A stretch of DNA of 64,000 nucleotides. Source: Gemmatimonadota bacterium (lineage in GTDB: Bacteria > Gemmatimonadota > Gemmatimonadetes > Gemmatimonadales > GWC2-71-9). The stretch lies in NCBI GenBank assembly GCA_041499375.1, contig JBGQKD010000006.1, positions 43,582 to 107,581 of the forward strand. The letters run 5' to 3'. Shown one piece after another: positions 11,413-32,972 of the stretch. The notes under the pieces were generated by a model. It had not been told where the DNA came from, did no database searches, and saw only the letters and a list, made by a program, of their open reading frames with translations. A program made the position numbers and the translations under genes. Position 1 is the stretch's first letter. Every line of letters begins with the position of its first letter.

Positions 11413-11766
11413 CTAGCGATCAGGCAAGAAGGGTGTGATCGACTCGGCGACCCCAGGACATTCGCCCGCCGCGCGCGGCCGCACCTCGAGGATCTGCTGT
11501 ACCTGAAAGTAGGGCCGCCCGCTGTAGATGCTGCCCGAGCGTCTGCTGACTCCGCGGAGACGTACGAACACCGGCTTGTTTGGCACGGCGGTGGCGCGGT
11601 AGCGCGCCGTGAGCGCCGAGTCCGGCACCGCGATCGCGACCTTGGGGTCATCGCAAGGAAAGAGGGTGCCCGAGCTCTCGTCATTGACGTACACACCACG
11701 GACTTCTGTCGGACGGTGACAGGCAACGAAGAGCAGGCACCCGAGCACACCTGCGAATTGACGCAT
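11413..11766 (-). CDS. small lipoprotein, unknown function
   Basis: C-terminal 117 aa of tracked ORF 11413..12441. Start ATG 11766-11764. Lipobox MRQFAGVLGCLLFVAC. Two further Cys (FPCDD, GECPG). Confidence 0.6.
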   Translation of the reverse strand: MRQFAGVLGCLLFVACHRPTEVRGVYVNDESSGTLFPCDDPKVAIAVPDSALTARYRATAVPNKPVFVRLRGVSRRSGSIYSGRPYFQVQQILEVRPRAAGECPGVAESITPFLPDR

Positions 11767-11771
11767 GTTTC

Positions 11772-15974: not shown

Positions 15975-16022
15975 GGCCTAAACGATATCCGGCCCGGCAA
16001 GGGTGCGTTAGTTTCCCTGCCC

Positions 16023-19341: not shown

Positions 19342-21201
19342 CTAGTTACACGTACCCCACCCGGTGTTCTGCACTAGCCGGCATTCACTCCCAACCTTGC
19401 TCAGCTCGATCTGTGTCGACGGAATCGGATAGTACAGGTACTGTGGCAACACGTACGGTGCGGCCAGGGTGAGGTACCTAATCCGCGTCTTCTCGCTCGC
19501 GAGGTAGTTCGTGACGACGGTGTCCGACCCGCCCCAGCGCCGCAGGTCGAAGAAGCGCTGCCCTTCCATCGCCAGCTCGAGACGCCGCTCGGCGCGAACC
19601 GCCGCCCGTGCGGTGGCCTGCACGGTCCAGGGCGTGGTGTACTGACCGATCTTGTAGAAGGCCCACGGCTTCTGCAGGGAGTCGAGCGTCCCCGTCAGAT
19701 TCGCCAGCATCGGCTGCGCCAGGCGGGTGTCTCCAATGCAGGACGCATACCGGTTCGTGACCGTCGAATCGGCGCTGCCGCAGCCCTGCGCGGTAATGCC
19801 CGCCCGTGCTCTGATCGAATTCACGATCGCCCGGGCGTTCTCGAGGCTTCCGGCTTCGACCTCGGCCTCGGCCAGCATTAGCAACATGTCGGCGTACCGG
19901 TAGAGATGAATCGGCACGTCGTTCGTCTGCGATGCCACCCAGCCGACGTTGTTCTCAGCGTTCGGCGCCCCTTGCTCATGGATGTTCTTCTTGGGGCTGT
20001 ACGGACCGCTGTAGGAGGCGTCGCGGATCCACTGGCGGATGTGCACGCCCCAATCCTTATAGGGGACGTTATCCCGGCCTACGGTCCAATCGAGCCGCGG
20101 ATCGACCGCGTTCGGCATTCCCGCATAGGTCGTGTCAGTGTTCCACGCCGGGCCCGCCACTGCCAGCGGCAGACCGGCCGCATCGACCTTGAAGTAATTC
20201 GTCAGGTTGTACGACGGCTGGTGGAAGCCGCAGCAGGCGAAGTGGCTCGGAGCGTACGGGAAATTGAGCCGCTCGCCCCAGTTCGAGTTCCAACCACTCG
20301 GCTCGCCGTCCTTGACCGAGGCTTGGAACGCGAGGATGGTCTCCTTGCCGTTCCGGTACGCCGGAAAGCCGGTCCAGACGTGATCGAAGCTGGTCTCGAG
20401 CGCGAACACGTTGCTGTTCTTCACCGCCGTCAACGTGGTGATCGCCTGCGCCCAGTAGGCTGGGTTCAGCGCGGCGGCGTACACCTGCACGCGACCCTTG
20501 TACGCCCGCGCCGCCCACGACGTCACGCGGCCCTTTTCGCCATTGCGCGGCGCAGGCGGAAGCATGGCCGCGGCGCTGTCGAGGTCCGCGATCATCAGCT
20601 TGATGATCGAGTCGAGCGGCAAATCGTTCGGCTTCCGGAGATCGGTATCGGTCTCCAAGTAGTAGGGAATGTGCCCCCACATCCGGTAGGCCTCGAAGTG
20701 GTAGTGCGCCCGCAGGAAGAGCGCCTCGCCGCGGATCTGGCGTGCCACCCCCGCCGCGAACTCGCCCGGCTTCGATGCCTCCACGGCCTCGAGCAGGCGG
20801 AGCGTCGCGTTGGAGCGTGCCACGCCCTCATAGACCTGGGCCCACTTCTGGTTTATGTAGGTGTCGGCCTCGCCGACGCTCCACAGAAACGTCTCGATGT
20901 CGTTGATCGGCTGCTGATCGCCGAGGTCGGAGCCCTTGTACGCGTCATTGCCGGTGACGCTGCCCCACACCCAGTTGCTGGCGGCGCAGCCCCAGGAGCC
21001 GGAGGAGCTGGACTCGCAGTCCAGCGCCCGGTAGGCCGCGATGAGCGAGCCTTCCACGCCGACTTTCGTCGAGAGCGTCGATTGATCGACCGTGCCTTGG
21101 GCGGGCTGGTCCAGGAAATCTTTGCAGGCGTAGGTGACGCCGGCGACGACCACCAGTGCCGCCATGCTGTACAAGACTCGCTGCCACATGTGTCTGTTCA
21201 T
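19342..21201 (-). CDS. SusD/RagB-family nutrient-binding outer-membrane lipoprotein
   Basis: Tracked ORF 19342..21225 trimmed to ATG 21201 (RBS GGAGAGGGA upstream; MNRHMWQRVLYSMAALVVVAGVTYAC lipobox). Size and position directly downstream of the SusC-like gene. Typical blocks RALFLRAHYHFEAYRMWG, ERRLELAMEGQRFFDLRRW. Confidence 0.88.
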   Translation of the reverse strand: MNRHMWQRVLYSMAALVVVAGVTYACKDFLDQPAQGTVDQSTLSTKVGVEGSLIAAYRALDCESSSSGSWGCAASNWVWGSVTGNDAYKGSDLGDQQPINDIETFLWSVGEADTYINQKWAQVYEGVARSNATLRLLEAVEASKPGEFAAGVARQIRGEALFLRAHYHFEAYRMWGHIPYYLETDTDLRKPNDLPLDSIIKLMIADLDSAAAMLPPAPRNGEKGRVTSWAARAYKGRVQVYAAALNPAYWAQAITTLTAVKNSNVFALETSFDHVWTGFPAYRNGKETILAFQASVKDGEPSGWNSNWGERLNFPYAPSHFACCGFHQPSYNLTNYFKVDAAGLPLAVAGPAWNTDTTYAGMPNAVDPRLDWTVGRDNVPYKDWGVHIRQWIRDASYSGPYSPKKNIHEQGAPNAENNVGWVASQTNDVPIHLYRYADMLLMLAEAEVEAGSLENARAIVNSIRARAGITAQGCGSADSTVTNRYASCIGDTRLAQPMLANLTGTLDSLQKPWAFYKIGQYTTPWTVQATARAAVRAERRLELAMEGQRFFDLRRWGGSDTVVTNYLASEKTRIRYLTLAAPYVLPQYLYYPIPSTQIELSKVGSECRLVQNTGWGTCN

Positions 21202-21237
21202 CGTCTTCCGTCCCTCTCCAGTCAAAGACGAAGTTCG

Positions 21238-24200
21238 TTAGAAGGTGGTCGAAATCCCGATCGTAATGATCTTGTTGCTCGGATACGTGCCCTGGTCGAT
21301 GCCACGGGCCTCATCCCGAATGTCGCCTGTGTTCCCGCCGGAAGCTGCTACCGGGAGCGACGGATCGAGACCGGAGTACCCGGTAATCGTGAACAGATTT
21401 TCCGCCTGCAGGTACACGCGCGCGGCCGGGATCCATCGGACGATGGCGGGCGGGAGGTTGTACGAGAGCTGCAGGGTGCGCAGCCGCACGTACGAGCCGT
21501 CCTCCACCCAGTAGCTGCTCCACTGCCGGCTGAACGCGTCGCTGCCGTCGATCCGGGGATACTTGGCGCCCGGGTTGATCACGCGCGGATCGCCGCTGCA
21601 ACCACGTGACGCGTCGCATGGTTTATCGAGCTGCACCGAATTGGCGAGCAGGTCCTTCGCGACGTTGGTGGCGAAGTACCGGTACACGTACCAGTACTTC
21701 TGCGTGTTGAAGATCTGGTTGCCGAAGGTCCCGAACACCGTGGCACTCAGTTCCCACGAACCGCGCCGCAGCGCGAGATCGAGCCCGGCCGTGAAATCGG
21801 GATGCGGGCTGCCGATGAGCGCCCGGTCGTCGGCGGTGATCAAGCCGTCGCCGTTCAGATCCTTGAACTTGATGCGCCCGGGGCGCGCGCCCGAAGACCA
21901 GTAGGGCGACGCATCCACCGAATCGACGTAGTAGCCGTCGGCCACCAGACCGTAGAACGCGCCGAGCGGCTGACCCAGCTCGTTGCGCACCGCGTTTTGC
22001 TCGCGCACCACCGAGCTGCCGCGTCCGAGGAAGAACGTTTGCACGCCGTCGATCTTCGTGATCTTGTTCTTATAGTGGCTGCCGTTGAACGACACGCTCC
22101 ACACCGTGCGCGTGCCGATCGTGCTGTGATAGCCAATCGAGAAATCGATGCCGTTGTTGCTCATGCTGCCGATATTGCGAACCGGCGGCGCCGCGGAGCC
22201 GCCCGTCGCGGGCGTCGGCGGATCGAACAACAGACCATTCGTGTTGCGGCGATACACATCGACCGTGAAATTGCCGCGGCCGCTGAGGAACTCGAAGTCC
22301 AATCCGGCGTTCGTCGAATGGTTCTCTTCCCACTTCAAGGTCGGGTTGCCGAGCGCGGTGGTCTTGAAGCCCGGCTGAATCGACGACCCGGTCCCGCCGA
22401 TGTCATAGAAGACATCGCCGCGGTCGCCGCCGTACTGATCGTAGATCCGGAACGGGACGTTCTGATTGCCCGTCACGCCCCATCCGAAGCGGAGCATGAC
22501 GTTCTGCACCGGCAGGCTCTGGCCGAACGATTCCCGCGAGATCCGCCAGCCGCCCCCGACCGCCGGGAACGTCCCCCACCGGTTCGTCGGCCCGAACGTC
22601 GATGATCCGTCGCGCCGCAGCGTCAAGCTGAGATAGTAGCGGTCGCCGTAGTTGTAGTCCGCCTTGCCGAAGAACGAGAGTAGCGCGTGTTTGCTACCGG
22701 AACTGCTCACGTTCTTCGTCGTCGGATCGCACAGCGCGTCCTGGATGTAGCGCGAGTCCACGCTGTTGTTGAGCAGCTTGGTGCAATTGCCCGCCTCGAA
22801 CCGGAAGTTGCCCTTGATCGCTTCCTGCCCCAGGAGCAGCGTGACGTTGTGCTGGTTCATCGTCCGCGAATAGTTCAGCGTATTGCTCCAGGTCCACTCC
22901 GAGAACAGGCTGTAGTTCTCGTTGATGCCGTCGATGTCCGTCACTTCCCGGTCCTCGAACGTCGTCGGCGTGTACCCGTGGAACGAGCCCTGATTGAGAT
23001 TGAATCCGAACTTCGTCTTCAACGACAGCGCGTGCCCCGCATCGACGGTCCCGAACACGTTGCCGAACACGCGATCGTTCGTCGCGATGTTGTTCTGCGC
23101 AAAGGTCGCGATCTTGAGGGGGTTCGTCATGTTGCCGAGACCGCCGGCCTTGCCGGAGGCAAAGTTCCCGCCGACGTCGTAGATCGGGGTCACGGGCTGC
23201 TGGAAGATATTCTTGCCGACGATATTCCCTTCACCGACGTTGTCATCGGTGAGCCCCTCGGCGCCGTGGTGCTGCTCGCGCGAGATCGAAAGGTTCTCGC
23301 CGATGCTGGCCCGACCGATGTTGAACGTGGTGTTGACCCGGGCGCCGCCGCGCTGGAACCGCGTGAACGCCGCCGTGCCCTCCTGGTCGAGATAGTTCAA
23401 CGACACGTGGTAGGCGTTGTCATCCCCGCCGCCCGAGAGGGCCAGGTTCGCGTCGCGGTACTGACCGGACCCGAACACCGCCTTCCACCAATTGGTCCCC
23501 GGGCTGCCGGGCATGATCAGGTTGGTCGGGTACGAATACGTCGCCGGATCGACGTTGGTGCAGGGCACCGGCGTCCCGTTCGCATTGTTGCAGTTGTTCG
23601 GAAAGATGTATGCCGGGACGCTGGGGTTGACTGAATCCCCGTAGATGTTGATCGGGATCTGCTGTCCCGCGTTCTGTTGCCCCAGCTTGACGACCTTGAA
23701 ATAGTCGAGCGAATTCTGGATCAGGATGTCGTCATAGCCGTGCGTGGGGGTGGCCACCCCGGTCCGGACGTCCAGCGTCACCTGCCGCTGTCCCGGTCTC
23801 CCCTTTTTCGTTTCGATGATGATGACGCCGTTGCTCGCGCGCGATCCGTAGATCGACGTCGCGGAGCCGTCCTTCAGCACCTGCATGGACGCGATGTCGT
23901 CCGGGTTCAGGAAGTTGAGATACGACTCCTGCACCGGCGTCCCGTCGACGATGTACAGCGGGTCGTTGTTCTGAAAGCCCGTGACACCGCGGATCCGCAC
24001 AGTGCTTTTTGAACCGGGAGCACCGCCGCTCTCCACCGTCACGCCCGGCACCCGCCCGTCGAGCCGCTGCAGCACGCTCGTCGAGGTCTGTTGCTGCGCG
24101 CCCTCGACGTTGATGCTCGACACGGAGCCCGTGATGTCCGCGCGGCGCTGCGCCGTGTACCCGGTCACGATCACCGGCTCGAGCACGGCGATCGCCGACT

Positions 24201-24504
24201 CGAGCGCGACGTCGATCTGGGGACGCCCCGCAATCGTGCGCGCGCCGCCCTTGTACCCGATCAGCGCGAACAGGAGCACGCCGTCGCCGGGCGCTGTAAT
24301 GGTGTACTTGCCGTTTGCGTCGGTTGTGGTCGTGGTGGTCGTCCCACGCACCTGGACCGTAACGCCTGGCAACCGTTCACCCGTTATCGAGGTGACCGTG
24401 CCGGAGACCTGGGTCTCCTGCGCCAGAGCCGTGCCGCTCACGGTCAGCGTGAACAGCAGGCCCATTCCGAGTGCAGCGAGAGCACGAATGATTTTCTTTT
24501 CCAT
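21238..24504 (-). CDS. SusC/RagA-family TonB-dependent outer-membrane receptor
   Basis: Tracked ORF 21238..24525 trimmed to ATG 24504 (RBS GGAGG). Signal peptide, then a carboxypeptidase-regulatory-like domain (VSGTVTSITGERLPGVTVQVRG...DANGKYTI), a plug (DGRVPGV..., PLYIVDGTP), a long beta-barrel and a C-terminal ...IGISTTF. Confidence 0.92.
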   Translation of the reverse strand: MEKKIIRALAALGMGLLFTLTVSGTALAQETQVSGTVTSITGERLPGVTVQVRGTTTTTTTDANGKYTITAPGDGVLLFALIGYKGGARTIAGRPQIDVALESAIAVLEPVIVTGYTAQRRADITGSVSSINVEGAQQQTSTSVLQRLDGRVPGVTVESGGAPGSKSTVRIRGVTGFQNNDPLYIVDGTPVQESYLNFLNPDDIASMQVLKDGSATSIYGSRASNGVIIIETKKGRPGQRQVTLDVRTGVATPTHGYDDILIQNSLDYFKVVKLGQQNAGQQIPINIYGDSVNPSVPAYIFPNNCNNANGTPVPCTNVDPATYSYPTNLIMPGSPGTNWWKAVFGSGQYRDANLALSGGGDDNAYHVSLNYLDQEGTAAFTRFQRGGARVNTTFNIGRASIGENLSISREQHHGAEGLTDDNVGEGNIVGKNIFQQPVTPIYDVGGNFASGKAGGLGNMTNPLKIATFAQNNIATNDRVFGNVFGTVDAGHALSLKTKFGFNLNQGSFHGYTPTTFEDREVTDIDGINENYSLFSEWTWSNTLNYSRTMNQHNVTLLLGQEAIKGNFRFEAGNCTKLLNNSVDSRYIQDALCDPTTKNVSSSGSKHALLSFFGKADYNYGDRYYLSLTLRRDGSSTFGPTNRWGTFPAVGGGWRISRESFGQSLPVQNVMLRFGWGVTGNQNVPFRIYDQYGGDRGDVFYDIGGTGSSIQPGFKTTALGNPTLKWEENHSTNAGLDFEFLSGRGNFTVDVYRRNTNGLLFDPPTPATGGSAAPPVRNIGSMSNNGIDFSIGYHSTIGTRTVWSVSFNGSHYKNKITKIDGVQTFFLGRGSSVVREQNAVRNELGQPLGAFYGLVADGYYVDSVDASPYWSSGARPGRIKFKDLNGDGLITADDRALIGSPHPDFTAGLDLALRRGSWELSATVFGTFGNQIFNTQKYWYVYRYFATNVAKDLLANSVQLDKPCDASRGCSGDPRVINPGAKYPRIDGSDAFSRQWSSYWVEDGSYVRLRTLQLSYNLPPAIVRWIPAARVYLQAENLFTITGYSGLDPSLPVAASGGNTGDIRDEARGIDQGTYPSNKIITIGISTTF

Positions 24505-24521
24505 GAATCCCTCCGCCTCCC

Positions 24522-25433
24522 TCATTCGACGGGTCTCCGCATTGACTGCAGGCCTTCCTTGGCGATCACGTCTCGATACGTCAGCAGCACCACGTTGCGT
24601 GCCTTGAGCGCCGCGCTGAACCGCGGCGACGTCAGCGCCGTCAACTCGCCCTGACGGTTCTTGCTCATGTTGGGCAGCGGCTCGTCGGTATTCATGTCGA
24701 GCAACGCGCCGAGCTCCGCGTCGTCGATTCCGACGTGCGTCACGACCGCGTTCAAACCCGGCTGCAACCGACTGACGAACGCGGCCAGACTGTCCCCCTT
24801 CCGCTCCGGCGCCGCGGCATACTGCGGCGCGTCCATCGTCTCCCCGAAGTAGCCGGACATCCCTAGCCCGTACTCGCGCGCCAGCCGCTCCGTGACCTCG
24901 CGGAACTCCGGATAGCGCGTCGCCGTGCCCATGTGCTCATCGACGTAGTCGATCTTCACGCCGGAGCGCAGCGCTCGGTCGATCTGGGCGCGCAGCTCTT
25001 TCTCGACTTCGGCCACGCTGGGATTGTGCTGGTGCAACGCTTCGGAGGAGGGAAAGAAAAAGCCGTTCTCATCGACCAACGACGGAACGGCGGCACTGCC
25101 TGCGACGGGACCCCAGCGATAATTCTTCCACTCCGAATTCAGCGCCAGATGGATGCCGACGGAGACGTTCGGATGCTGCTTGAGAATCTCCACGGCTTCC
25201 TGGTACCACGGGCAGGCGAACAGCACCGACACCGAGACCGGCATGCCGGTCGAGACGAGCTTCTGCATCGCCATGTTCACGCTATGGCTCATGCCGATGT
25301 CGTCGGTGCGGATGATCAGCGAAACAGGCTGGGAGGTGGTGTGGAGGGGCGTCGCGGTTTGCGCCGACACGAACGTCACCGCGCTGGTCGACAGCAACCA
25401 GCTGAACCAGGTGACAGTGCCAATTACGCGCAT
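24522..25433 (-). CDS. YdjC/ChbG-family carbohydrate deacetylase, secreted
   Basis: ORF track 303 aa. Signal peptide. LIIRTDDIGMSHSVN, GIHLALNSEW, DEHMG blocks. Its stop lies 17 nt before the SusC-like start. Confidence 0.82.
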   Translation of the reverse strand: MRVIGTVTWFSWLLSTSAVTFVSAQTATPLHTTSQPVSLIIRTDDIGMSHSVNMAMQKLVSTGMPVSVSVLFACPWYQEAVEILKQHPNVSVGIHLALNSEWKNYRWGPVAGSAAVPSLVDENGFFFPSSEALHQHNPSVAEVEKELRAQIDRALRSGVKIDYVDEHMGTATRYPEFREVTERLAREYGLGMSGYFGETMDAPQYAAAPERKGDSLAAFVSRLQPGLNAVVTHVGIDDAELGALLDMNTDEPLPNMSKNRQGELTALTSPRFSAALKARNVVLLTYRDVIAKEGLQSMRRPVE

Positions 25434-25467
25434 CGGGGCGGCTCCCGTTAGCGAACGGTCTCGAACG

Positions 25468-25485
25468 TGTTACAACGGCGTAACA
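25468..25485. promoter_or_regulatory. perfect inverted repeat TGTTAC-N6-GTAACA, candidate operator upstream of the ydjC/susC/susD-like genes
   Basis: Read directly: TGTTACAACGGCGTAACA. It lies in the 104-nt gap between the LuxR-type gene stop (25538) and the YdjC-like start (25433). It is relatively AT-rich for this window, and no U-tract follows on either strand. Confidence 0.25.
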
Positions 25486-25537
25486 TGACCCCACAGGATG
25501 GAACGACAAGACCCCCAACCCGGGTCACCTGATCAGG

Positions 25538-25861
25538 CTACAACGCGCGGTGTCTGCTCTCTGGACGCTTGCGCCCGTTGCTGCCGCGTTTGGGAAGGGA
25601 ACGAAACTCGGCAAAGACGCGCACCAGCAGCTCCTCGCGGCTCTGCACCTGGAGCTTGCGATAGATGCGCCACAGGTAGGTGTGCACGGTGTGCGGCGAC
25701 AGCCCCAGGCGGGCGGCGGTGTCTTTCTCGGAATTGCCGTCGAAGACGGCGCGCACGATGCCGCACTCCCGCGGCGAGAGGCCGAGACAGTTGGCGAGCG
25801 AACGCCACTCGCCGGGAACGAACACCGCCTGGCCGGTTCCAGTCACGACGGTCTCTCTCAT
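25538..25861 (-). CDS. LuxR/GerE-family helix-turn-helix regulator (short, no receiver domain)
   Basis: C-terminal 107 aa of tracked ORF 25538..26248. Start ATG 25861 (ATGA overlap with the GNAT stop). LSPRECGIVRAVFDGNSEKDTAARLGLSPHTVHTYLWRIYRKLQV. Confidence 0.75.
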   Translation of the reverse strand: MRETVVTGTGQAVFVPGEWRSLANCLGLSPRECGIVRAVFDGNSEKDTAARLGLSPHTVHTYLWRIYRKLQVQSREELLVRVFAEFRSLPKRGSNGRKRPESRHRAL

Positions 25862-26418
25862 GGCGTTCCAATATGCTGTGCGTTTCGTTCCCACCGCCAG
25901 ACCGGACCGTCCTCGGGATCGACGACCGGACCGACGTGCGCGAAGCCACATTTCGCAAGCACGCGCGTGGAGGCATTCGCCTCGGGCAGCGTATGCGCCC
26001 GGATGGTCTTCACGCGCGGATCGTTGCCGGCGAAGTGAATCAGCGCGCGCGCGGCCTCGGTCGCGTATCCCCGGCCTTCGCGAGACGGCACGACACCGTA
26101 GGCGATCTCCACCATTCCTGCGCCATCGGGCGCGCCTTTGAATCCCGCCCCGCCGACGATCTCGCCGCTCGCCTTCTCGATGATGAAAAAACCGTGACGC
26201 CAGGGGTTCGGTCCCTGCCCCACCGCCGCGCGGAGCGCCTCGAGCCACTGCGGGGACACGTCGCCCGAAACGTAGAACCCCCGCAGTCCATCCGCGGGGG
26301 TGAGGGCGGCGATCTCCTCGAAGCGCTCCGGCTCCTCGATCAGCGCCAGCAGCTGCTCCGGTGCGTACGCGAGCAGCGTCAGCCGCGGCGTGTCGAGCTC
26401 GGTTCGCTCACGTGGCAT
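25858..26418 (-). CDS. GNAT-family N-acetyltransferase
   Basis: ORF track 186 aa. RimJ/RimL-like: DTPRLTLL, GGAGFKG, VEIAYGVVPSREGRGYATEAARALI, ANASTRVLAKCGF. Confidence 0.85.
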   Translation of the reverse strand: MPRERTELDTPRLTLLAYAPEQLLALIEEPERFEEIAALTPADGLRGFYVSGDVSPQWLEALRAAVGQGPNPWRHGFFIIEKASGEIVGGAGFKGAPDGAGMVEIAYGVVPSREGRGYATEAARALIHFAGNDPRVKTIRAHTLPEANASTRVLAKCGFAHVGPVVDPEDGPVWRWERNAQHIGTP

Positions 26419-26935
26419 CGAAGCCGGCGTATTCTCCCGGTTGAATGACGTTGCCCTTGTACTGCTGATCGTCGTGAATGCCGATCTTCGACGTGTAGTA
26501 GGCGCGAATCGTGCCGCTCTTGATCACCCCGAAGAACTTTTCGGCGTCGCTCTTCGCATCGGACTCGGCGGCGGCAATGCGCGTCAGGAGCGCGAGCCGC
26601 TGCTCGAGCGTTGATGCCATGAATGTCTTGCCATGCATCTCGCGCGACAGCGCCTCGACCGCCTTGATCCCCGCGCGCCACCGCTCCGGCTGGTCCTTCT
26701 CGAACGATTCGGCGAGCCGCGCGTCGATGAAGGTGGCCACGCCGGCCGCGCGCGCGCCCGCCGATTGTTGGTCGGTCGGGATGATCATGTCGCTCATCTC
26801 GTCCACCAGCGCGAATTCGGCGGCCGTAAAGAACTTTGGCGGCACAGGCGCCAGGGGCGGCAGGGCTCTTACCAGGGGCAGAGCGGCTGCTGCCGCCGCC
26901 GTCTGCTGGAGCATCTTGCGACGCGAGATCTTCAT
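26408..26935 (-). CDS. gluconate 2-dehydrogenase subunit 3-family protein (Tat-signal small subunit)
   Basis: ORF track 175 aa. MKISRRKMLQQTAAAAAALPL. ATGA overlap with the GMC gene stop (26932-26935). Confidence 0.82.
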   Translation of the reverse strand: MKISRRKMLQQTAAAAAALPLVRALPPLAPVPPKFFTAAEFALVDEMSDMIIPTDQQSAGARAAGVATFIDARLAESFEKDQPERWRAGIKAVEALSREMHGKTFMASTLEQRLALLTRIAAAESDAKSDAEKFFGVIKSGTIRAYYTSKIGIHDDQQYKGNVIQPGEYAGFDAT

Positions 26936-28722
26936 AGGTTCCCCCGCTTGAATTCGTCGGCGAGATGCTCACAGGAGCGCCACGCCAGCGCCATGATCGT
27001 CCACGTGGGGTTCTGGCACGACGCGCTCACGTGACTCGAGCCGTCCACCACGAAGAGATTCTTCACGTCGTGCGACTGCTGGAACTGATTCAGCACCGAT
27101 GTCTTGGGATCGTTGCCCATGCGGGCCGTGCCAAGCTCGTGAATCGACCAGCCTTCGGTGAGGATGTTCTTGTCGACGCCGACGACTTCGATGCCCGCCG
27201 CTTCGAGCATCTCCTTGCCGGCGTTCGCCATGTCCTCGCACATCTTTTTCTCGTTGTCCGAGAACTCGTAATGGAAGCGCAACGCCGGGATCCCCCAGGC
27301 GTCCTTCTCCACGGGGTCGAGGTCCACGTAGTTCTCGTAGCGGGCGAGCACTTCGCCGAAGCCGCCCATACTGATGAAGGCGCCCGCGTGCTCGCGCACC
27401 GATTTCTTGAACTGCCCGCCGAATCCCGGCGTGCCCCAGGCGTTGTCGGGGAAGAGCCCGAAGCCGGAGCCACCTTCGAAGCCGTAGCCGCGGATGAACC
27501 CGGGCTGCTTGTCCTGCAGGTTCCGGAACCGCGGCACGTAGAACCCGCCCGGCTTGCCGTCATCCAACGTGGGGGGCGCGCCTACCATCTCCTTCACGAG
27601 TCCCGTGACGCCCGGCCCCATCACGTGCTCGCAGAAGTTGTGGCCGACATGGCCGCTCGAATTGCCGATGCCGTTGGGATGCTGCCGTGATTTCGACAAC
27701 AACAACAATCTGGCACTCTCCAGCGTCGACGCCGCCACGATGACGACCTTAGCCTTTGCTTCGTACGTCTTGTGATTCACCGAATCGACGAATGAGACCC
27801 CGCGCGCTTTGCCTGTGTTCGGGTCCACGAGCACTTCATGCGCAGTCGAATTCGTGCGCAGCGTGAGATTGCCCGTGTCCATCGCGGGATAGATCAGCCC
27901 CGTGGGAGAATCGAACGCGGCGTGGATGTCGCATCCGCCCGGCCGCCGGCCGCACGCGCCGCGGCCGAAACACTTGCTGCGATACTTGTTCTTCACGCCG
28001 TCCGTCGTCACGCCCGCGCGGTACGGCGTCACGGTGCGGCCCATCGTCGCGAGACTCTTGCGGAGCTTCACTTCAGAAGCCGTCAGCTTGTTGGGCCGCT
28101 GGAACAGACTGTCCGGCAGATGCGGCAGATTCTCCTTGTGGCCGCTGATGCCGAGGTAGAGATCGACCTTGTCGTAGTAGGGTTCGATATCGGCGTAGGA
28201 GATGGGCCAGTCCTCACCGTAGCCGTCGTGCGTCTTTCCCTTGAAGTCGTAATCGGAGAGCCGCAACGCGAGGCGGCCCCAGATGTTCGTCTTGCCGCCC
28301 AGCAACCGCGCGCGCACCCAGGCGTACTTCGTGCCCGTATACGGATTATCCTTCTCATCCACCAGAATGTTCTTCACGTAATCCGATCCGCCCCAGCCGC
28401 CGACGTAGGAGAACACGTGCTTGAACGCGGAGCCCTTCGCGTAGGGCGGCTTGCGGATGTTGTACTCGTTGAAGCGAATCGCATGGTATCCCGGCGGCGC
28501 CTCGCCGCGGCGGGGGTGCTCGTAGGGCCATTGCATCGAGCGCAGCTCAGCATTGATGTCGATCTTTTTGCCCGCCTCGAGCAGCAGCACCTTCATCCCC
28601 TGGGAGGTGAGCACGTGGGCAGCCATGCCGCCCGCCGCGCCGGAGCCGACCACCACGGCGTCGTAGGTGACGGACAGGTCGACGTCCTGCTCCTGCGAGG
28701 CTTTGAAGCGAATGAGAGTCAT
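26932..28722 (-). CDS. GMC-family FAD-dependent oxidoreductase
   Basis: Tracked ORF 26932..28758 trimmed to ATG 28722 (RBS AAGGAAGAG). YDAVVVGSGAAGGMAAHVL dinucleotide fold. C-terminal SIHELGTARMG and NLFVVDGS. Confidence 0.9.
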   Translation of the reverse strand: MTLIRFKASQEQDVDLSVTYDAVVVGSGAAGGMAAHVLTSQGMKVLLLEAGKKIDINAELRSMQWPYEHPRRGEAPPGYHAIRFNEYNIRKPPYAKGSAFKHVFSYVGGWGGSDYVKNILVDEKDNPYTGTKYAWVRARLLGGKTNIWGRLALRLSDYDFKGKTHDGYGEDWPISYADIEPYYDKVDLYLGISGHKENLPHLPDSLFQRPNKLTASEVKLRKSLATMGRTVTPYRAGVTTDGVKNKYRSKCFGRGACGRRPGGCDIHAAFDSPTGLIYPAMDTGNLTLRTNSTAHEVLVDPNTGKARGVSFVDSVNHKTYEAKAKVVIVAASTLESARLLLLSKSRQHPNGIGNSSGHVGHNFCEHVMGPGVTGLVKEMVGAPPTLDDGKPGGFYVPRFRNLQDKQPGFIRGYGFEGGSGFGLFPDNAWGTPGFGGQFKKSVREHAGAFISMGGFGEVLARYENYVDLDPVEKDAWGIPALRFHYEFSDNEKKMCEDMANAGKEMLEAAGIEVVGVDKNILTEGWSIHELGTARMGNDPKTSVLNQFQQSHDVKNLFVVDGSSHVSASCQNPTWTIMALAWRSCEHLADEFKRGNL

Positions 28723-28800
28723 CTTCTCTTCCTTAGTGTTGCGGACCGCCGCTAACATGCACCGCGAACACGGTGCTGTCTGCTTGCCAAGTTGGAACGT

Positions 28801-29544
28801 TCACGGGATGCGCTCCAGCAGCGCGACCAGCTCGGCGCGGTGGTTGCGCTCCGGCAGGTGATCGGAAACCATCTTGTAAACAGGCCAACCACGCACCGCG
28901 GCGCGATCGGCGAACGGTTGGAAGGGGTCGGGGGTGATCTGCGGCTCATAGGTCAGAATGTACGCCGCGGCCACAGTGCGCCGAGCAGGATTCACGAGAC
29001 GCAGGGTATCGGTGAACGTGCGAAGTGATTGCGGCACGTCGCGGGGAATCACCGTCGTGTCCTGCACCCAGACGGGCACCAGGTAGCCGTCACGCGTCAC
29101 ACTCTGCACGAACTTCTGGCGCGCGGTGTCCGGTATCGACATCACCGATTCTCCCGAATCGGGCAGCAGCGCGTCGAGGTACACGACGCGCTTGATCCGG
29201 CCCGGAATCCGGTCCACGACCCCTGTGATCACCATCCCGCCATAGCTGTGCCCCAGCAGCACGACGTCGTGCAGGTTATCCCAGAGAATCGTGTTGACGA
29301 CGTCGTCGATGTGCGTGGCGAGGCCGATATTCGGCGACGCGAGATGGTGGCGCTCGCCCAACCCCGTCAACGTGACCCGCACGACGCGATGGCCGTGGCG
29401 CGTCAACATCGAATCGATCGCGAGCCAATCCCATCCCCCGCCCCACGCACCGTGTACGATGACATAGGTGTAGTGCGGTCTTTGCTGTGCGGAGAGGGAG
29501 GCGCCGGTAATTGCCGCGGCAACGACCAGCGCCGTGAGCCGCAT
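28801..29544 (-). CDS. alpha/beta hydrolase (esterase), secreted
   Basis: C-terminal 247 aa of tracked ORF 28801..30633. Start ATG 29544 overlaps the upstream TGA by 1 nt. Signal MRLTALVVAAAITGASLSA. VIVHGAWGGGWDW and nucleophile elbow GHSYGG. Confidence 0.8.
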   Translation of the reverse strand: MRLTALVVAAAITGASLSAQQRPHYTYVIVHGAWGGGWDWLAIDSMLTRHGHRVVRVTLTGLGERHHLASPNIGLATHIDDVVNTILWDNLHDVVLLGHSYGGMVITGVVDRIPGRIKRVVYLDALLPDSGESVMSIPDTARQKFVQSVTRDGYLVPVWVQDTTVIPRDVPQSLRTFTDTLRLVNPARRTVAAAYILTYEPQITPDPFQPFADRAAVRGWPVYKMVSDHLPERNHRAELVALLERIP

Positions 29545-30401
29545 CAGAACTCGAGGCCGTGCAGATACTCGAAGTTCGCGCGCGCGTCCGCGAGGTCGCC
29601 GGCCGCGTCGCTCGCGCTTTCCTGCTCGACGTGCGCAGGCTTCTGCTCCAACGCAGGCACGGCGGCCAGGAACTTCCTGAAATCGAAGATCCCCTTCCCG
29701 AGCCCCGTGTCGCGAGAACGGTCGGCCACCGCGTCCTTGAGGTGGAAGCTCCAGAAGCGGTCGGGATACTTCTGCAGATACTGCATCGGGTCGCCGCCGC
29801 CGATCAGCATGTTCCCGACGTCGAGCTGCAGCCGAGTGACGGAGGGATCGAGGCGACTGATGAAAACGTCGAAGGGGATCTGGCCGTCGATCGGCTTCTG
29901 GTGATAGGCCTCGTTGTGGAACCCGAGCCAGATGCCCGCCTTGCGGGCGACCGCGCCGGCGGCATTGAAGCGATCCGCCCATTCCCGCCAGTCGTCGAGC
30001 GTCTGCTTGGTCCAGTCCTCGAAATCGGGCACGAAGCAGTACTGCTGGCCGAGGATCTTGGCCTTCTCGAGGCTGCGCTCCCAGCCGACGAAGATCGTGT
30101 CGGCGGACATGTGGCACGACGGCGCGCGCAGCCCCTCGTTCTTGAGCGTCGCCGCGACCTGCTGCGGCGTGCGCCCGAAGAGATTGAACGACCAGAGCAG
30201 CTCGACGTCGGTGTAGCCGATGGCGCGCACCGCTGCGAGCGTGCGCTCGGGATCCTGCGCCATCGCGTGACGGACCGCGTAGGTCTCGAGCCCGATGCGG
30301 TCGAGTTTTTTCGCGGATCCAACGGGAACGCGCGCGAGCATGCCACCCGCGGCCGCCGCGCTCATCGTCTGAAGAAAGTCGCGTCGTTTCATGCCTTCCA
30401 A
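29544..30401 (-). CDS. xylose-isomerase-like TIM-barrel protein with Tat signal
   Basis: ORF track 285 aa. MKRRDFLQTMSAAAAGGMLA. GYTDVELL, LGFHNE, LQLDVGN, FHLKD blocks. Confidence 0.85.
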   Translation of the reverse strand: MEGMKRRDFLQTMSAAAAGGMLARVPVGSAKKLDRIGLETYAVRHAMAQDPERTLAAVRAIGYTDVELLWSFNLFGRTPQQVAATLKNEGLRAPSCHMSADTIFVGWERSLEKAKILGQQYCFVPDFEDWTKQTLDDWREWADRFNAAGAVARKAGIWLGFHNEAYHQKPIDGQIPFDVFISRLDPSVTRLQLDVGNMLIGGGDPMQYLQKYPDRFWSFHLKDAVADRSRDTGLGKGIFDFRKFLAAVPALEQKPAHVEQESASDAAGDLADARANFEYLHGLEF

Positions 30402-30444
30402 AATACTCGTCGCCGAACGACTCGGCGAGCGATATCATTCGCGC

Positions 30445-32073
30445 ATGAACACACTCATTGCGCTCGTCGCCCTCGCCGCTGCGCACCCCCTTCAGGACAC
30501 GACCCTCCCGGTCATTCCGCGGCCGGTGCATATGATCCGCGGGACCGGGGGGTTCGCGCTCACGTCCGGAACCCTCATCGTGACTGATCGCGCCACGCGA
30601 CAGATCGGGTATCAGCTCGCCGACTGGCTGCAACCGGCGACCGGCTATCGGCTATCGGTCGCCGGCGCCGCGGGCGGTGCAACGCGCAGCATCTCGCTCC
30701 GGCTGGATGCGACGCTCTCACGCCTCGGCGACGAGGGTTACAGGCTATCCGTGACTCCCGGCCGCATCACGATTCGGGCATTTCGTCCGGCCGGCGCGTT
30801 CTACGCCGTCGAGACGCTGCGGCAGCTGTTGCCACCGGACGTCTTCCGCTCGGCGCCCGTGTCCGGCGCGTCGTGGACGGTGCCTGCGGTCGACATCGAA
30901 GACATGCCGCGCTTCCAATGGCGCGGCGCGCATCTCGACGTGTCGCGCTCGTTCATGCCGAAGGAATTCGTCAAGAAGTACATCGACCTCCTGGCGCTCC
31001 ATAAGCTGAATCGGTTCCACTGGCACCTCACCGACGATCAGGGTTGGCGCATCGAGATCAAGAAGTATCCGCTGCTTACGTCGATCGGTGGCTGGCGACG
31101 CCAGTCGCTCGTCGGCGTGCAGCACAACTATGCCGATACGACCCAGTGGGTCTACGACAAGATTCCGCACGGCGGGTTCTACACGCAGGACGACGTCCGT
31201 GAAGTCGTCGCGTATGCGCAAGCGCGCTTCATTACCGTCGTCCCTGAAATCGAGATGCCCGGCCACGCGCAGGCCGCGATCGCCGCCTACCCCTGGCTCG
31301 GCAACACGGAGCAGCAGCTCGAGGTCCTCACGCACTGGGGCGTGGATCAGAACATTCTCAACCCGTCCGACTCGGCGATTCACTTCATGCAGGACGTGTT
31401 GACCGAGGTGCTGGCGCTGTTCCCGAGTCACTGGATCCACACCGGCGGCGACGAAGCGCCGAAGCAGCAGTGGCAGGCGAGTCCGGTCGCGCAGGAGCGC
31501 ATCAGGCAGCTGGGACTGCATAGTGAGAACGAGCTGCAGAGCTGGCTCACTGCGCAGATGAGCCAATGGCTCGCCGCGCGCGGGCGCGCGTTGATCGGCT
31601 GGGACGAGATCCTCGAAGGCGGGATGGAAGGGCTCGCGCCGAACGCGGTCGTGATGTCGTGGCGCGGGATCGACGGCGGCATCGCGGCGGCGCAGGCGGG
31701 CCACGACGTCGTCATGACGCCGACGTCGAACACCTATTTCGACTACTACCAGTCGCAGAACGTGGCCGCCGAGCCGCTGGCGATCGGTGGATTGCTGCCG
31801 CTGGATACGGTGTACGCCTACGAGCCCGTTCCCGCTGCGCTGACGGCCGAGCAGGGCGCGCACGTCCTGGGCACCCAGGGGCAGATCTGGACCGAGTACC
31901 AGCGCACGCCCAAAAACGTCGAGTACATGGTGTTTCCGCGACTGGTGGCGCTGGCCGAGGTGGCGTGGACGCCGGCGGGGTTGAAGAACTATGCGGACTT
32001 CAGCGCGCGGCTGCGCGCGCATCTGGCGAGGCTAGACGTCCTGGATGTGAACTACCGAAGGCTCAACTACTGA
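30445..32073 (+). CDS. beta-N-acetylhexosaminidase (GH20)
   Basis: Tracked ORF 30391..32073 trimmed to ATG 30445 (signal MNTLIALVALAAA). RFQWRGAHLDVSRSF, LNRFHWHLTDDQGWRIE, catalytic IHTGGDEAP. Confidence 0.9.
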   Translation: MNTLIALVALAAAHPLQDTTLPVIPRPVHMIRGTGGFALTSGTLIVTDRATRQIGYQLADWLQPATGYRLSVAGAAGGATRSISLRLDATLSRLGDEGYRLSVTPGRITIRAFRPAGAFYAVETLRQLLPPDVFRSAPVSGASWTVPAVDIEDMPRFQWRGAHLDVSRSFMPKEFVKKYIDLLALHKLNRFHWHLTDDQGWRIEIKKYPLLTSIGGWRRQSLVGVQHNYADTTQWVYDKIPHGGFYTQDDVREVVAYAQARFITVVPEIEMPGHAQAAIAAYPWLGNTEQQLEVLTHWGVDQNILNPSDSAIHFMQDVLTEVLALFPSHWIHTGGDEAPKQQWQASPVAQERIRQLGLHSENELQSWLTAQMSQWLAARGRALIGWDEILEGGMEGLAPNAVVMSWRGIDGGIAAAQAGHDVVMTPTSNTYFDYYQSQNVAAEPLAIGGLLPLDTVYAYEPVPAALTAEQGAHVLGTQGQIWTEYQRTPKNVEYMVFPRLVALAEVAWTPAGLKNYADFSARLRAHLARLDVLDVNYRRLNY

Positions 32074-32924: not shown

Positions 32925-32972
32925 TAACGTCCTCGAATTGAGAACCGTCAAGCCTAACAAGGTCGTAATGGC

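Follow-up and report, generated by a model that had tools for sequence, protein, structure and literature searches.

The window analysed here, a 64,000-nt stretch of DNA, comes from a soil Gemmatimonadales bacterium and carries a conserved locus for glycan import across the outer membrane. Gene boundaries, including start positions, were refined for the block at 19342-32073, where all 10 genes matched Pfam families above the curated cut-offs, in agreement with the ten identities assigned in a preliminary description. The block contains the following features.

19342-21201, minus strand: SusD-like lipoprotein (PF07980 and PF14322)
21238-24525, minus strand: SusC/RagA-type TonB-dependent transporter (CarboxypepD_reg, Plug and barrel domains)
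24522-25433, minus strand: Sec-exported YdjC-family carbohydrate de-N-acetylase (PF04794, 166 bits)
25538-25861, minus strand: stand-alone GerE/LuxR HTH regulator, 107 aa (PF00196, E 4e-14)
25858-26418, minus strand: cytoplasmic GNAT acetyltransferase (PF13302 and PF00583)
26408-26935, minus strand: Tat-signal small subunit, the hitch-hiker partner (PF13618, E 7.5e-30)
26932-28722, minus strand: GMC flavoprotein, catalytic subunit (PF00732 and PF05199)
28801-29544, minus strand: secreted α/β-hydrolase (PF12697)
29544-30392, minus strand: Tat-exported, xylose-isomerase-like TIM barrel (PF01261)
30410-30436, no strand: 27-nt conserved element within the 52 bp between the TIM barrel and GH20 genes; its sequence, TCGCCGAacgacTCGGCGAGCGATATC, has a palindrome with GATATC after it
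30445-32073, plus strand: GH20 β-N-acetylhexosaminidase with a Sec signal (PF00728, 400 bits, and PF02838)

Stop and start codons overlap between the TIM barrel and hydrolase genes (by 1 nt), the small-subunit and GNAT genes and, as ATGA, the GMC and small-subunit, GNAT and LuxR, and YdjC and SusC genes. A 105-nt gap containing a hairpin (25510-25526) lies between LuxR and YdjC, and because it parts the oxidation genes from YdjC-SusC-SusD, co-transcription of the two sets is not assured. The GH20 gene is divergent from the TIM barrel gene. The 27-nt element was found as one copy per locus in 10 relatives, always immediately 5´ of the GH20 ATG. In some relatives one or both palindrome arms are altered, as in L011 (TCGCTGA...TCAGCGA), and the element does not keep a reading frame. 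We regard it as a candidate control site for GH20, either operator or promoter.

The block had been described as a PUL-like unit. That observation is confirmed, but the functional unit reaches beyond the block on both sides, with extensions at 32067-35056 and 14235-19331.

32067-32924, minus strand: GH16 endo-β-1,3-glucanase (laminarinase), a lipoprotein (PF00722)
32973-33713, minus strand: Tat-signal SGNH/GDSL esterase (PF13472)
33710-35056, minus strand: APC-family permease, candidate inner-membrane importer (PF13520 and PF00324)
16023-19331, plus strand: FG-GAP/ASPIC-UnbV protein, 1100 aa (PF13517, 341 bits, and PF07593)
14235-15974, minus strand: second FG-GAP/ASPIC-UnbV protein (PF13517 and PF07593)

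The esterase has an RRDFL Tat motif in its translation, and its ATG overlaps the stop codon of the permease gene. The permease gene heads the upstream co-directional unit and that of the second FG-GAP protein heads the downstream one; both are syntenic in relatives. The 1100-aa FG-GAP protein, encoded convergently on susD, is a constant companion of SusCD.

Conservation was assessed in 18 species genomes with a GMC protein at least 88% identical (close relatives), and the counts are limited to loci whose flanks were long enough. The block was syntenic in every close relative sampled, with GNAT present in 16 of 16 loci, the TIM barrel in 14 of 14, SusC and SusD each in 12 of 12, YdjC in 12 of 13, GH16 and the 1100-aa FG-GAP protein each in 11 of 11 and GH20 in 9 of 11. 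Since the neighbours recur in this way, chance is excluded as the cause of the arrangement. The α/β-hydrolase gene is accessory and variable: several relatives lack it, and some of these have a PD40 β-propeller gene between the TIM barrel and GMC genes (L013 has both). The GMC and small-subunit genes remain paired in 74 of 80 species loci, and at GMC identities below 81% the pair mostly occurs without the TIM barrel (present in 1/34) or SusC (0/26), so the GMC enzyme is not exclusive to this locus. Orthologous pairs were found in the arrangements PIG-L-like, DUF1080, GMC, small subunit (L049, L060); GH130, GMC, Gfo, small subunit (L023, L028); and GMC, small subunit, canonical TIM barrel (L064, L077), and L054 has a paralogous GMC gene with two TIM barrel genes. 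A second PUL architecture, with overlapping stop and start codons, reads APC permease, GH130, GMC, small subunit, SusC, SusD, FG-GAP (L039, L022, L019, L033); the permease and FG-GAP genes are thus common to both, the permease heading this one as well (L039, L022).

The GMC protein (596 aa, as in its homologues) is a probable glycoside 3-dehydrogenase. BLASTP aligned it over its full length with GlycDH, the characterised Tat-partnered glycoside C3-dehydrogenase of Rhizobium, at 37% identity (330 bits, E 2e-110), a level that would not by itself guarantee C3 regioselectivity. By phmmer, GlycDH scored 342 bits, compared to 117 for FAD-glucose dehydrogenase, 55 for C-glycoside 3-oxidase and 21-22 for choline oxidase, and solved relatives after GlycDH reached at most 117 bits. 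These scores uphold a placement with sugar dehydrogenases rather than choline or alcohol enzymes, the protein lying far from choline oxidases. The protein has no signal peptide of its own; the small subunit has an RRKML Tat motif in its translation, and a search against solved small subunits detected no sequence match. C251, C257 and C264 of the GMC protein are invariant in 83 sequences and align with the Cys-rich region of Burkholderia cepacia FADGDH, which holds a 3Fe-4S cluster (PMC9727119). The heterotrimeric FAD dehydrogenases (B. cepacia FADGDH, Gluconobacter fructose dehydrogenase (FDH) and the glucoside 3-dehydrogenase LacABC, EC 1.1.99.13) resemble the pair in the FAD subunit, the three-Cys 3Fe-4S motif and the PF13618 Tat hitch-hiker subunit. 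They differ in that their three-haem cytochrome c subunit is not adjacent here, and the Cys of the FADGDH inter-subunit disulfide is a Phe. A CxxCH motif search found no cytochrome c within 19342-32073, as had been stated; the sole nearby cytochrome, encoded 6 kb past susD, is unrelated, has seven haems and is anchored in the membrane.

The Tat signal of the TIM barrel was read in the sequence, the Pfam TAT_signal match (17.5 bits) lying under the 22.7 cut-off. Sequence matches in the PDB were 8tcd, 8tcs and 8tct (E 2e-18 to 2e-15) and 8bvk (6e-9), and Foldseek, for which an AF2 model (pLDDT 86) was available, names its PDB relatives as the lyases AL1, BT1 and AtOGE. We take 8TCD and the related entries to be those of Nasseri et al., Nature 2024. 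Judged by sequence, the closest solved relatives are the Bacteroidales 3-keto-β-glucopyranoside-1,2-lyases AL1 and BT1 (8TCD, 8TCR, 8TCT; E about 2e-18), then AtOGE. The motifs Y-H-N-H-x-x-E and D-V-Y-W of the Bacteroides lyases are F-H-N-E-x-Y-H and, at the DV[YF]W lyase motif, DVGN in this protein, which falls in a small, separate H-x-E subfamily. Its invariant Glu164 aligns with the catalytic His134 of AtOGE (22% identical), of which the H134A variant is inactive. Because the catalytic His of the lyases is replaced, the TIM barrel is a lyase relative and not a proven lyase, and the non-hydrolytic glycoside cleavage proposed for the locus is therefore a step that we infer.

For import, the SusC protein scored 734 bits against TIGR04056 (NCBIfam cut-off 368) and was also above the cut-off for the TIGR04057 SusC/RagA signature. 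The SusD-like protein has a VTYAC lipobox visible in translation. Among solved structures it is closest to SusD homologues for levan and β-glucan, and these do not settle specificity. The best solved relatives of the hydrolytic enzymes were 8jqe for YdjC (E 1.6e-40; the protein was under every NCBIfam equivalog cut-off), 6q63 for GH20 (E 5e-142) and laminarinase 3azx for GH16 (E 2.8e-64); the GH16 lipoprotein of the locus has a poly-proline linker. No chitinase is present at the locus, and Pfam assignments of the conserved block include no exo-β-glucosidase. YdjC and GH20 had been read as pointing to HexNAc glycans; HexNAc is kept, but not as the sole pointer, the conserved GH16 making β-1,3-glucan as likely. 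Because the block includes this surface β-1,3-glucanase, fungal-wall-type glycans (β-glucan and HexNAc) appear the likeliest substrate. A comparable locus is FCWUL of Chitinophaga pinensis (PMC10449523), likewise a SusCD locus of a soil bacterium with β-1,3-glucanase and chitin/HexNAc enzymes, although FCWUL works by hydrolysis alone and has multimodular chitinases, whereas YdjC, GNAT and the oxidation module are found in the locus here.

Four further genes in the window are listed next; those for the cytochrome, the Gfo protein and the DUF1080 protein bear on the electron acceptor and the missing pathway steps.

12212-13372, minus strand: membrane-anchored, seven-haem cytochrome c (seven CxxCH motifs, multihaem Pfam matches)
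13369-14310, minus strand: RnfD/NqrB-like polytopic membrane protein (PF03116, 43 bits)
45904-47253, minus strand: Tat-signal Gfo/Idh/MocA oxidoreductase (PF01408, PF19051 and PF22725)
47250-47972, minus strand: lipoprotein of the DUF1080 3-keto-disaccharide hydrolase family (PF06439, 175 bits)

The RnfD/NqrB-like stop codon overlaps the cytochrome ATG, and the cytochrome gene adjoins the YdjC-SusC-SusD-FG-GAP block in several rearranged soil contigs and L011; as electron acceptor of the locus it is a candidate, and only a lead. The DUF1080 protein has a signal peptide visible in translation, and its gene, 16 kb from the locus, is ATGA-coupled to that of the Tat-Gfo protein (RRRF motif in translation), a candidate 3-keto-sugar reductase. 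The tie of this pair to the locus is likewise a candidate one. With this DUF1080 3-keto-disaccharide hydrolase and Tat-Gfo/Idh/MocA pair the window resembles the Bacteroides BT2156-BT2160 3-keto-glycoside system (PMC8121099), but oxidation there is by a Gfo/Idh/MocA protein with bound NAD, in place of the GMC/FeS dehydrogenase here.

From what the genes encode and resemble, the state of their motifs, their synteny and their translational coupling, we favour, with reasonable though far from full confidence, a lineage-conserved Gemmatimonadales PUL in which periplasmic depolymerisation proceeds partly by an oxidative 3-keto-glycoside route rather than by exo-glycosidases; imported sugars would probably be opened by oxidation and then elimination of the glycosidic bond, not hydrolysis. 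The surface GH16 enzyme would cut the polymer and SusC/SusD import the oligosaccharides, both by homology. In the periplasm, GH20 and the secreted YdjC protein would handle HexNAc residues and the esterases take off acyl groups. The Tat-signal partner would carry the GMC flavoprotein across the membrane, where it would oxidise the C3-OH of the non-reducing sugar and hand electrons, by way of a 3Fe-4S cluster, to a c-type cytochrome of the periplasm or membrane instead of O2; we infer this from the gene neighbourhoods, the three invariant Cys residues and the 37% identity to GlycDH. The 3-keto sugar would go to the TIM barrel, which most likely would deprotonate C2 with the help of a metal and release the aglycone chain by 1,2-elimination. 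In this step, the least certain one, Glu164 would stand in for the His of the known lyases. The product may be hydrated and reduced to a normal hexose by the DUF1080 and Tat-Gfo proteins, and taken up through the APC permease.

An unlikely reading, though the strongest competitor, is that the pair forms a general periplasmic sugar dehydrogenase for respiration, oxidising C1 or another position like FAD-glucose/fructose dehydrogenase, with bonds cut by hydrolases only and the TIM barrel acting as isomerase, epimerase or dehydratase on the oxidised monosaccharide. FAD-GDH and FDH are indeed the nearest solved structures, oxidising C1 of glucose or C5 of fructose, but the C3-specific GlycDH scores three times as high as FAD-GDH (342 vs 117 bits). 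The pair is 74-97% conserved across two phyla, mostly outside a PUL or TIM barrel context, yet orthologues directly adjoin DUF1080 3-keto-disaccharide hydrolases and Gfo oxidoreductases. The Glu at the lyase His position occurs in epimerase-type members of the fold; by sequence, however, the top-scoring characterised relatives are 3-keto-glycoside lyases, above epimerases. Either variable gene between the TIM barrel and GMC genes, α/β-hydrolase or β-propeller, could encode a lactonase, the propeller being weakly similar to SMP-30/gluconolactonase, albeit with an SGL match under the Pfam cut-off.

Improbable, taken as a whole, is that the substrates of the oxidation module are small glycosides of natural-product or xenobiotic type (plant phenolic glucosides, aminoglycoside-like compounds), like those of GlycDH/AtOGE in Agrobacterium, with GNAT serving modification or detoxification and the SusCD adjacency reflecting shared small-glycoside import rather than polysaccharide breakdown. 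Phlorizin, ginsenosides and C-glycosides are substrates of the characterised GlycDH and AtOGE (PMC10628242), GNAT has weak AAC(6')-type matches, and an aminoglycoside 3-N-acetyltransferase gene adjoins GMC in L053 and L035. On the other hand, GH16, GH20, YdjC and SusCD are typical polysaccharide genes, GH130, GH3 and GH10 occur in other orthologue contexts, and AtOGE cleaves 3-keto-cellobiose too (Supplementary Table 4). Equally improbable is that the TIM-hydrolase-GMC-small subunit-GNAT-LuxR and YdjC-SusC-SusD genes are two operons of unrelated function linked by shared descent in one lineage: the gap with its terminator-like hairpin fits this, as does full synteny being confined to genomes where GMC identity reaches about 81-88% or more, but in the non-homologous second architecture (SusC only 29% identical) the orthologous pair immediately precedes susC, the genes overlapping or lying 19-95 bp apart, and the block outlasts GH20 inversion, insertions and hydrolase loss in several relatives.

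The proposed oxidative 3-keto-glycoside route has a counterpart in Agrobacterium/Rhizobium, where GlycDH shares an operon with AtOGE, a TIM-barrel eliminase, with the AtHYD hydratase and with a Gfo oxidoreductase (Bitter et al. 2023, PMC10628242), and GlycDH requires a 20 kDa Tat partner and favours ferricyanide over O2 at least 100-fold (PMC10628242). The experimentally defined GlycDH/TAT/AtOGE trio bears out the earlier assignment of the GMC protein, Tat subunit and TIM barrel to a 3-keto-glycoside gene set: both systems have a GMC-family FAD dehydrogenase, a co-encoded Tat-signal partner of ~20 kDa, a common Cys-rich motif, no cytochrome subunit and a xylose-isomerase-like TIM barrel in the same cluster, and C3 oxidation followed by metal-assisted β-elimination is the chemistry of that system and the one proposed for the locus here. 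Unlike that operon, these genes lie within a Gemmatimonadota SusCD locus with GH16, GH20 and YdjC, and the hydratase and reductase candidates are the distant DUF1080 and Gfo genes instead of a second in-operon TIM barrel. An analogy may also be drawn with E. coli chb, where ChbG (YdjC) prepares substrate for ChbF (GH4) (PMC9402603), GH4 enzymes acting by C3 oxidation and β-elimination (PMC10628242). There the process is cytoplasmic, on phosphorylated chitobiose, with all redox-elimination in one NAD+/Mn2+ enzyme, whereas the steps here would be periplasmic and divided among separate proteins.

The occurrence of a SusCD locus outside Bacteroidota, to which the earlier description drew attention, is not new, as such loci are published as widespread in Gemmatimonadota (PMC10469786). 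The oxidation-then-elimination chemistry is also known; the new details are its setting, the altered lyase-like enzyme and the possible cytochrome partner.

The preliminary description had proposed a glycan locus of nine minus-strand genes and one divergent plus-strand gene. Using a gene map from a GC3-guided reading of open reading frames, which was clean in this window of ~65% G+C, we found that Pfam agreed exactly with the identities given there:

29544-30392, minus strand: TIM barrel (PF01261), with the Tat motif MKRRDFLQ in the translation and a Pfam TAT_signal match below the cut-off
minus strand: secreted α/β-hydrolase
26932-28722, minus strand: GMC oxidoreductase
26408-26935, minus strand: small subunit (PF13618, 'gluconate 2-dehydrogenase subunit 3') with a Tat signal
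minus strand: GNAT protein
minus strand: GerE/LuxR HTH protein
minus strand: YdjC protein
minus strand: SusC, a Plug/β-barrel transporter with a CarboxypepD_reg domain
minus strand: SusD, a SusD_RagB protein (PF07980 and PF14322) with a lipobox Cys
30445-32073, plus strand, divergent: GH20

The transporter falls in the SusC/RagA subfamily (NCBIfam TIGR04056, 734 bits for a cut-off of 368, with the TIGR04057 signature as well), and susC and susD are adjacent, separated by 13 bp as judged from ORF ends, a gap that becomes 36 bp once the SusD start is refined to 21201. Carbohydrate-active enzymes are co-located with the pair (GH20, a GH16 laminarinase, the YdjC deacetylase and an SGNH esterase) and are syntenic in close relatives, giving the locus two genomic hallmarks of a SusC/SusD-type PUL. 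With refined starts, stop and start codons overlap at the TIM/hydrolase, GMC/small subunit, small subunit/GNAT, GNAT/LuxR and YdjC/SusC junctions; 78 nt precede the GMC gene, and the LuxR-YdjC gap of 105 nt contains a hairpin. These overlapping codons and short gaps indicate that the genes form one or two tight transcription units. NCBIfam gave no equivalog for GMC, the small subunit, the TIM barrel, YdjC or GH20. The window held no Rfam family and no tRNA, and scans of it for σ70 promoters and terminators gave background levels only.

The PDB contains no glycoside 3-dehydrogenase, so the query was GlycDH (AEX01166.1), the characterised Tat-partnered glycoside C3-dehydrogenase of Rhizobium sp. 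GIN611; its sequence came from Bitter et al. 2023 (Supplementary Table 6) as OCR text with a few letters missing. The GMC protein aligned with this query end to end at 37% identity (BLASTP, 330 bits, E 2e-110; phmmer, 342 bits, directly comparable with the PDB search scores). The closest solved structures were the catalytic subunit of B. cepacia FAD-glucose dehydrogenase (FADGDH, 117 bits) and Gluconobacter fructose dehydrogenase (FDH, ~112 bits), while pyranose and C-glycoside oxidases scored at most 55 bits (PsG3Ox, 55). By pairwise score against GlycDH, FADGDH, FDH, PsG3Ox and choline oxidase, GMC is thus a full-length homologue of a characterised glycoside C3-dehydrogenase and is closer to it than to the other enzymes compared. 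Clustering with choline or alcohol dehydrogenases would have spoken against the proposed sugar oxidoreductase; instead, the score was 342 bits for GlycDH and 21-22 bits for choline oxidase.

GlycDH oxidises glycosides at C3, is co-produced with a Tat-signal protein of 20.3 kDa and favours ferricyanide over O2 by at least 100-fold (PMC10628242). The GMC protein lacks its own signal peptide, and its gene is ATGA-coupled to that of the Tat-signal PF13618 subunit (RRKML motif), the GlycDH/LacA-type arrangement of a signal-less catalytic subunit beside a small Tat-signal subunit. The two are paired in 74 of 80 species-level loci with a related GMC; the small subunit had no match among solved chains. 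All of 83 homologues retain C251, C257 and C264 (in KCFGRGACGRRPGGCD), and these residues line up with the Cys-rich region of GlycDH and FADGDH; in FADGDH, this region carries a 3Fe-4S cluster that takes electrons from FAD (PMC9727119). A 3Fe-4S cluster is accordingly a prediction from the Cys motif. C3 regioselectivity on glycosides is suggested indirectly, by orthologues that adjoin PF06439 3-keto-disaccharide hydrolases, Gfo oxidoreductases and lyase-type TIM barrels. Immediately upstream of the orthologous GMC gene in two loci (L027 and L038) are genes for a 1-Cys peroxiredoxin, a DUF305 protein and a 650-aa protein; these neighbours might be a hint of peroxide production or of redox stress tied to the GMC enzyme.

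In Agrobacterium, GlycDH shares its operon with two TIM-barrel enzymes, the β-eliminase AtOGE and the hydratase AtHYD, and with a Gfo oxidoreductase (PMC10628242), and the window TIM barrel had been put forward as the lyase of such a 3-keto-glycoside route. This held for its relationships and metal site. The best solved relatives by sequence were 8tcd/8tcr, 8tcs and 8tct (E 2e-18 to 2e-15; phmmer E 2e-18 to 8tcd). Two Parabacteroides proteins, both uncharacterised, came next, ahead of 8bvk. By the PDB entry titles, from which we took these identities, 8TCD and 8TCR are 'Alistipes sp. 3-keto-β-glucopyranoside-1,2-lyase AL1', 8TCT is the B. thetaiotaomicron lyase BT1 and 8BVK is AtOGE. Foldseek with an AlphaFold model (pLDDT 86) gave E 7e-16 and TM 0.74-0.77 to 8tcd and 8tct, and 2.6e-12 to 8bvk; the uncharacterised 3obe and 3l23 outranked 8tcd/8tct in this search, and AtHYD (8RO4) scored below the lyases. 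In AtOGE, the metal ligands are His132, Asp163, His189 and Glu233, and an H134A variant is inactive (PMC10628242). The ligand counterparts H162, D194, H220 and E259 are invariant, with E259, which the BLASTP alignment does not reach, assigned by motif. The catalytic base, however, is absent: an invariant Glu164 aligns with AtOGE His134, and the motifs read F-H-N-E-x-Y-H rather than the Y-H-N-H-x-x-E of the lyases and D-V-G-N rather than D-V-[YF]-W. In an exhaustive search, the canonical His/Glu pattern was present in 89 of ~110 full-length family representatives and the Glu form (H-x-E) in only ~11, which are the closest relatives of the window protein. Four other H-x-E members had short or uninformative contexts with no GMC nearby. 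Given the replaced His and the rarity of the pattern, the TIM barrel is a lyase relative of a distinct subfamily and not a demonstrable lyase.

The locus itself contains no hydratase or reductase. Sixteen kb away are two genes coupled by ATGA:

47250-47972, minus strand: PF06439 (DUF1080) lipoprotein, 175 bits, with a lipoprotein signal
45904-47253, minus strand: Gfo/Idh/MocA oxidoreductase (PF01408) with an RRRF Tat motif

An exported PF06439 protein adjoining a Tat-signal Gfo/Idh/MocA enzyme is a pair of the BT2157/BT2158 type, and BT2157 of B. thetaiotaomicron hydrolyses 3-keto-trehalose (PMC8121099). We infer that the pair may serve the SusCD locus. An amidohydrolase gene (48445-49644) precedes it.

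Several further compact gene arrangements contain orthologous GMC/small-subunit pairs, at 77-85% identity. The pair follows PIG-L-like and PF06439 '3-keto-disaccharide hydrolase' genes with a 4-bp overlap (L060, L049), is split by a Gfo/Idh/MocA gene after GH130 (L028, L023) or is followed by a TIM barrel of the canonical H-x-H form (L064, from an acidobacterium, and L077); in L054, a paralogous GMC gene precedes two TIM barrels. GH3, GH10 and GH16 genes adjoin GMC in further genomes. With these arrangements, every other published component of a 3-keto-glycoside pathway is found beside GMC in some genome. A second SusCD architecture has overlapping or nearly abutting genes for an APC permease, GH130, GMC, the small subunit, SusC, SusD and FG-GAP (L039, L022, L019, L033). 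Its SusC is only 29% identical to that of the window, and its gene content suggests a β-mannoside-type substrate. Counting both architectures, the GMC enzyme has entered SusCD loci on at least two occasions. The APC 'amino-acid' permease, which recurs in both, is likely the inner-membrane transporter.

The absence of a cytochrome c subunit, as previously described, was confirmed: no CxxCH gene adjoins GMC in the window, and among the 80 related loci a CxxCH ORF lies directly beside GMC in one and within ~1.6 kb in two more. No dedicated multihaem cytochrome c subunit of the FADGDH, FDH or LacABC kind is thus encoded with GMC and the small subunit; the locus instead matches the GlycDH type, two subunits without an adjoining cytochrome gene. 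The nearest candidate is 13 kb from GMC:

12212-13372, minus strand: membrane-anchored cytochrome with seven CxxCH motifs

Its gene is ATGA-coupled to that of an RnfD-like membrane protein, and a second FG-GAP protein precedes. The surrounding minus-strand genes (11413-15974) form a putative operon for FG-GAP/UnbV, the RnfD/NqrB-like membrane protein, the TM-anchored seven-CxxCH cytochrome and a 342-aa ORF. Cytochrome orthologues (58-88% identical) on soil metagenome contigs and in one genome adjoin the YdjC-SusC-SusD-FG-GAP block in varied arrangements: directly after FG-GAP (L115, L118, L122, L130), divergent from susC (L135) or directly after susD (L011). On L118, a paralogous GMC gene, a small subunit and DUF1080 follow 4 kb downstream of the cytochrome. 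In about half of the long contigs, the cytochrome has no link to a SusCD block. We regard this protein as a tentative lead to the GMC electron acceptor, and a rather doubtful one.

Homologues of GMC and of the TIM barrel came overwhelmingly from Gemmatimonadales metagenome-assembled genomes. We mapped the window proteins onto the 80 species-level loci and, for the 18 genomes with GMC at least 88% identical, counted only loci with enough flank. The block was nearly constant in these close relatives (TIM 14/14, GNAT 16/16, LuxR 16/16, YdjC 12/13, SusC 12/12, SusD 12/12, FG-GAP 11/11, GH16 11/11, GH20 9/11). The conserved unit exceeds the originally described 19342-32073, with the order APC permease, Tat-SGNH esterase, GH16, GH20, TIM, (hydrolase), GMC, small subunit, GNAT, LuxR, YdjC, SusC, SusD, FG-GAP/UnbV; ORF calls in related loci were crude (GC3 filter). 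Below ~81% GMC identity, only the GMC/small-subunit pair is kept (38/39), including in Acidobacteriota at 74-80%. Between the Gemmatimonadales and Acidobacteriota (Blastocatellia, Vicinamibacterales) species genomes (26932-28722; L042-L080), GMC is 74-80% identical and the small subunit only 45-55%. This GMC conservation reflects either very strong constraint or recent inter-phylum transfer.

Several neighbours also recur. A PD40 β-propeller gene, with a sub-threshold SMP-30/gluconolactonase-like match, lies between TIM and GMC in four loci, occupying the place of the α/β-hydrolase in L021, L026 and L071 and coming after the hydrolase in L013. FG-GAP/ASPIC-UnbV (CRTAC1-like) proteins of 580-1100 aa are constant SusCD neighbours in these Gemmatimonadales, with three copies in the window (14235-19331, 3205-5115). 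The third opens a plus-strand cluster (3205-6722) in which a de-N-acetylase of the PIG-L family and a second TIM barrel (TIM2, PF01261) come next. Among solved proteins, ketose 3-epimerases are nearest to TIM2, by a weak match; the cluster is syntenic in relatives (TIM2 and PIG-L 83-96% identical).

The TIM/GH20 intergenic region is 52 bp and contains a perfect palindrome followed by GCGATATC at 30410-30436. In ten relatives, the 27-nt element TCGCYGAACGNNTSRGCGAGCGATATC upstream of GH20 is found once per locus, always just before the GH20 ATG. It is almost invariant in relatives whose proteins are only 75-85% identical and stays with GH20 where insertions part the two genes. One or both palindrome arms are altered in some relatives (TCGCTGA...TCAGCGA in L011). 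Coding for an N-terminal extension was ruled out, as the reading frame is not preserved among relatives. The element is a candidate operator or promoter, and the small LuxR protein would be its obvious putative binder. Translational coupling and this conserved cis element are the only signs pointing to possible co-regulation of the locus. Three loci (L001, L002, L007) have a ~60-bp insertion with a GC-rich hairpin (GGGGCGCAGCATGCTGCGCCCC) between the TIM start and the GH20 element, which may be a small repeat or mobile element; at this position, L014 carries an insert of 1.9 kb.

With regard to substrate, GH20 is a standard β-N-acetylhexosaminidase (6q63, E 5e-142), and GH16 is a lipoprotein that has a proline linker and clearly belongs with the endo-β-1,3-glucanases (3azx, E 2.8e-64). 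YdjC resembles an uncharacterised solved YdjC protein (8jqe, E 1.6e-40) and is Sec-exported, whereas E. coli ChbG is cytoplasmic. The solved relatives of SusD bind levan and β-glucan and do not settle its specificity. Pfam found no exo-β-glucosidase and no chitinase in the conserved block. Our reading is that the locus handles material in which β-1,3-glucan and HexNAc are mixed, fungal cell walls for example, and that the oxidative module would replace exo-glycosidases for exo-cleavage; the Chitinophaga FCWUL is a hydrolytic precedent for a fungal-wall locus (PMC10449523).

De-N-acetylases recur beside the GMC dehydrogenase, YdjC in the window and PIG-L-like proteins in L049, L060, L075 and L079. 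ChbF is a GH4 enzyme, and GH4 chemistry is oxidation-elimination. The mono-deacetylated substrate of ChbF is made by E. coli ChbG, a YdjC enzyme (PMC9402603), and the chemistry of GH4 enzymes has been discussed as the same as that of the 3-keto route (PMC10628242). The analogy between the ChbG/ChbF pair and YdjC with the oxidation module is worth testing. Taken jointly, these features could, as a long shot, describe a periplasmic multi-protein equivalent of GH4 for amino-sugar glycans: YdjC (PIG-L in sister loci) would de-N-acetylate terminal GlcNAc, the GMC/FeS enzyme would oxidise C3, H-x-E TIM barrels, as a new eliminase class adapted to 2-amino or otherwise unusual 3-keto sugars, would break the bond, and electrons would pass via the 3Fe-4S cluster to the membrane-anchored seven-haem cytochrome. 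If so, glycan depolymerisation would itself be coupled to respiration.

SusCD loci have already been reported as widespread in Gemmatimonadota (PMC10469786). Agrobacterium and Bacteroidales are established users of the 3-keto-glycoside route, and oxidation-elimination cleavage of glycosidic bonds was shown only recently, in Agrobacterium and gut Bacteroidales. In the literature searched, we found no description of a GlycDH-type GMC/FeS dehydrogenase within SusCD loci. Neither the searches for PULs with a GMC and PF13618 pair nor those for a glucoside 3-dehydrogenase of the hitch-hiker type or for the PDB codes 8TCD and 8JQE gave anything directly usable. A description also appears to be lacking for the H-x-E TIM subfamily and for the recurrent multihaem cytochrome. 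The subfamily and the cytochrome lead are concrete targets for enzymology. The very high conservation of GMC across two phyla suggests an unstudied, widespread soil function, and surveys that count only glycoside hydrolases would overlook such oxidative capacity. If our interpretation is true, an oxidation-elimination route is built into the SusCD glycan-harvesting loci of abundant soil Gemmatimonadota, where it could replace exo-glycosidases on fungal-wall-type glycans and return reducing power to the respiratory chain.
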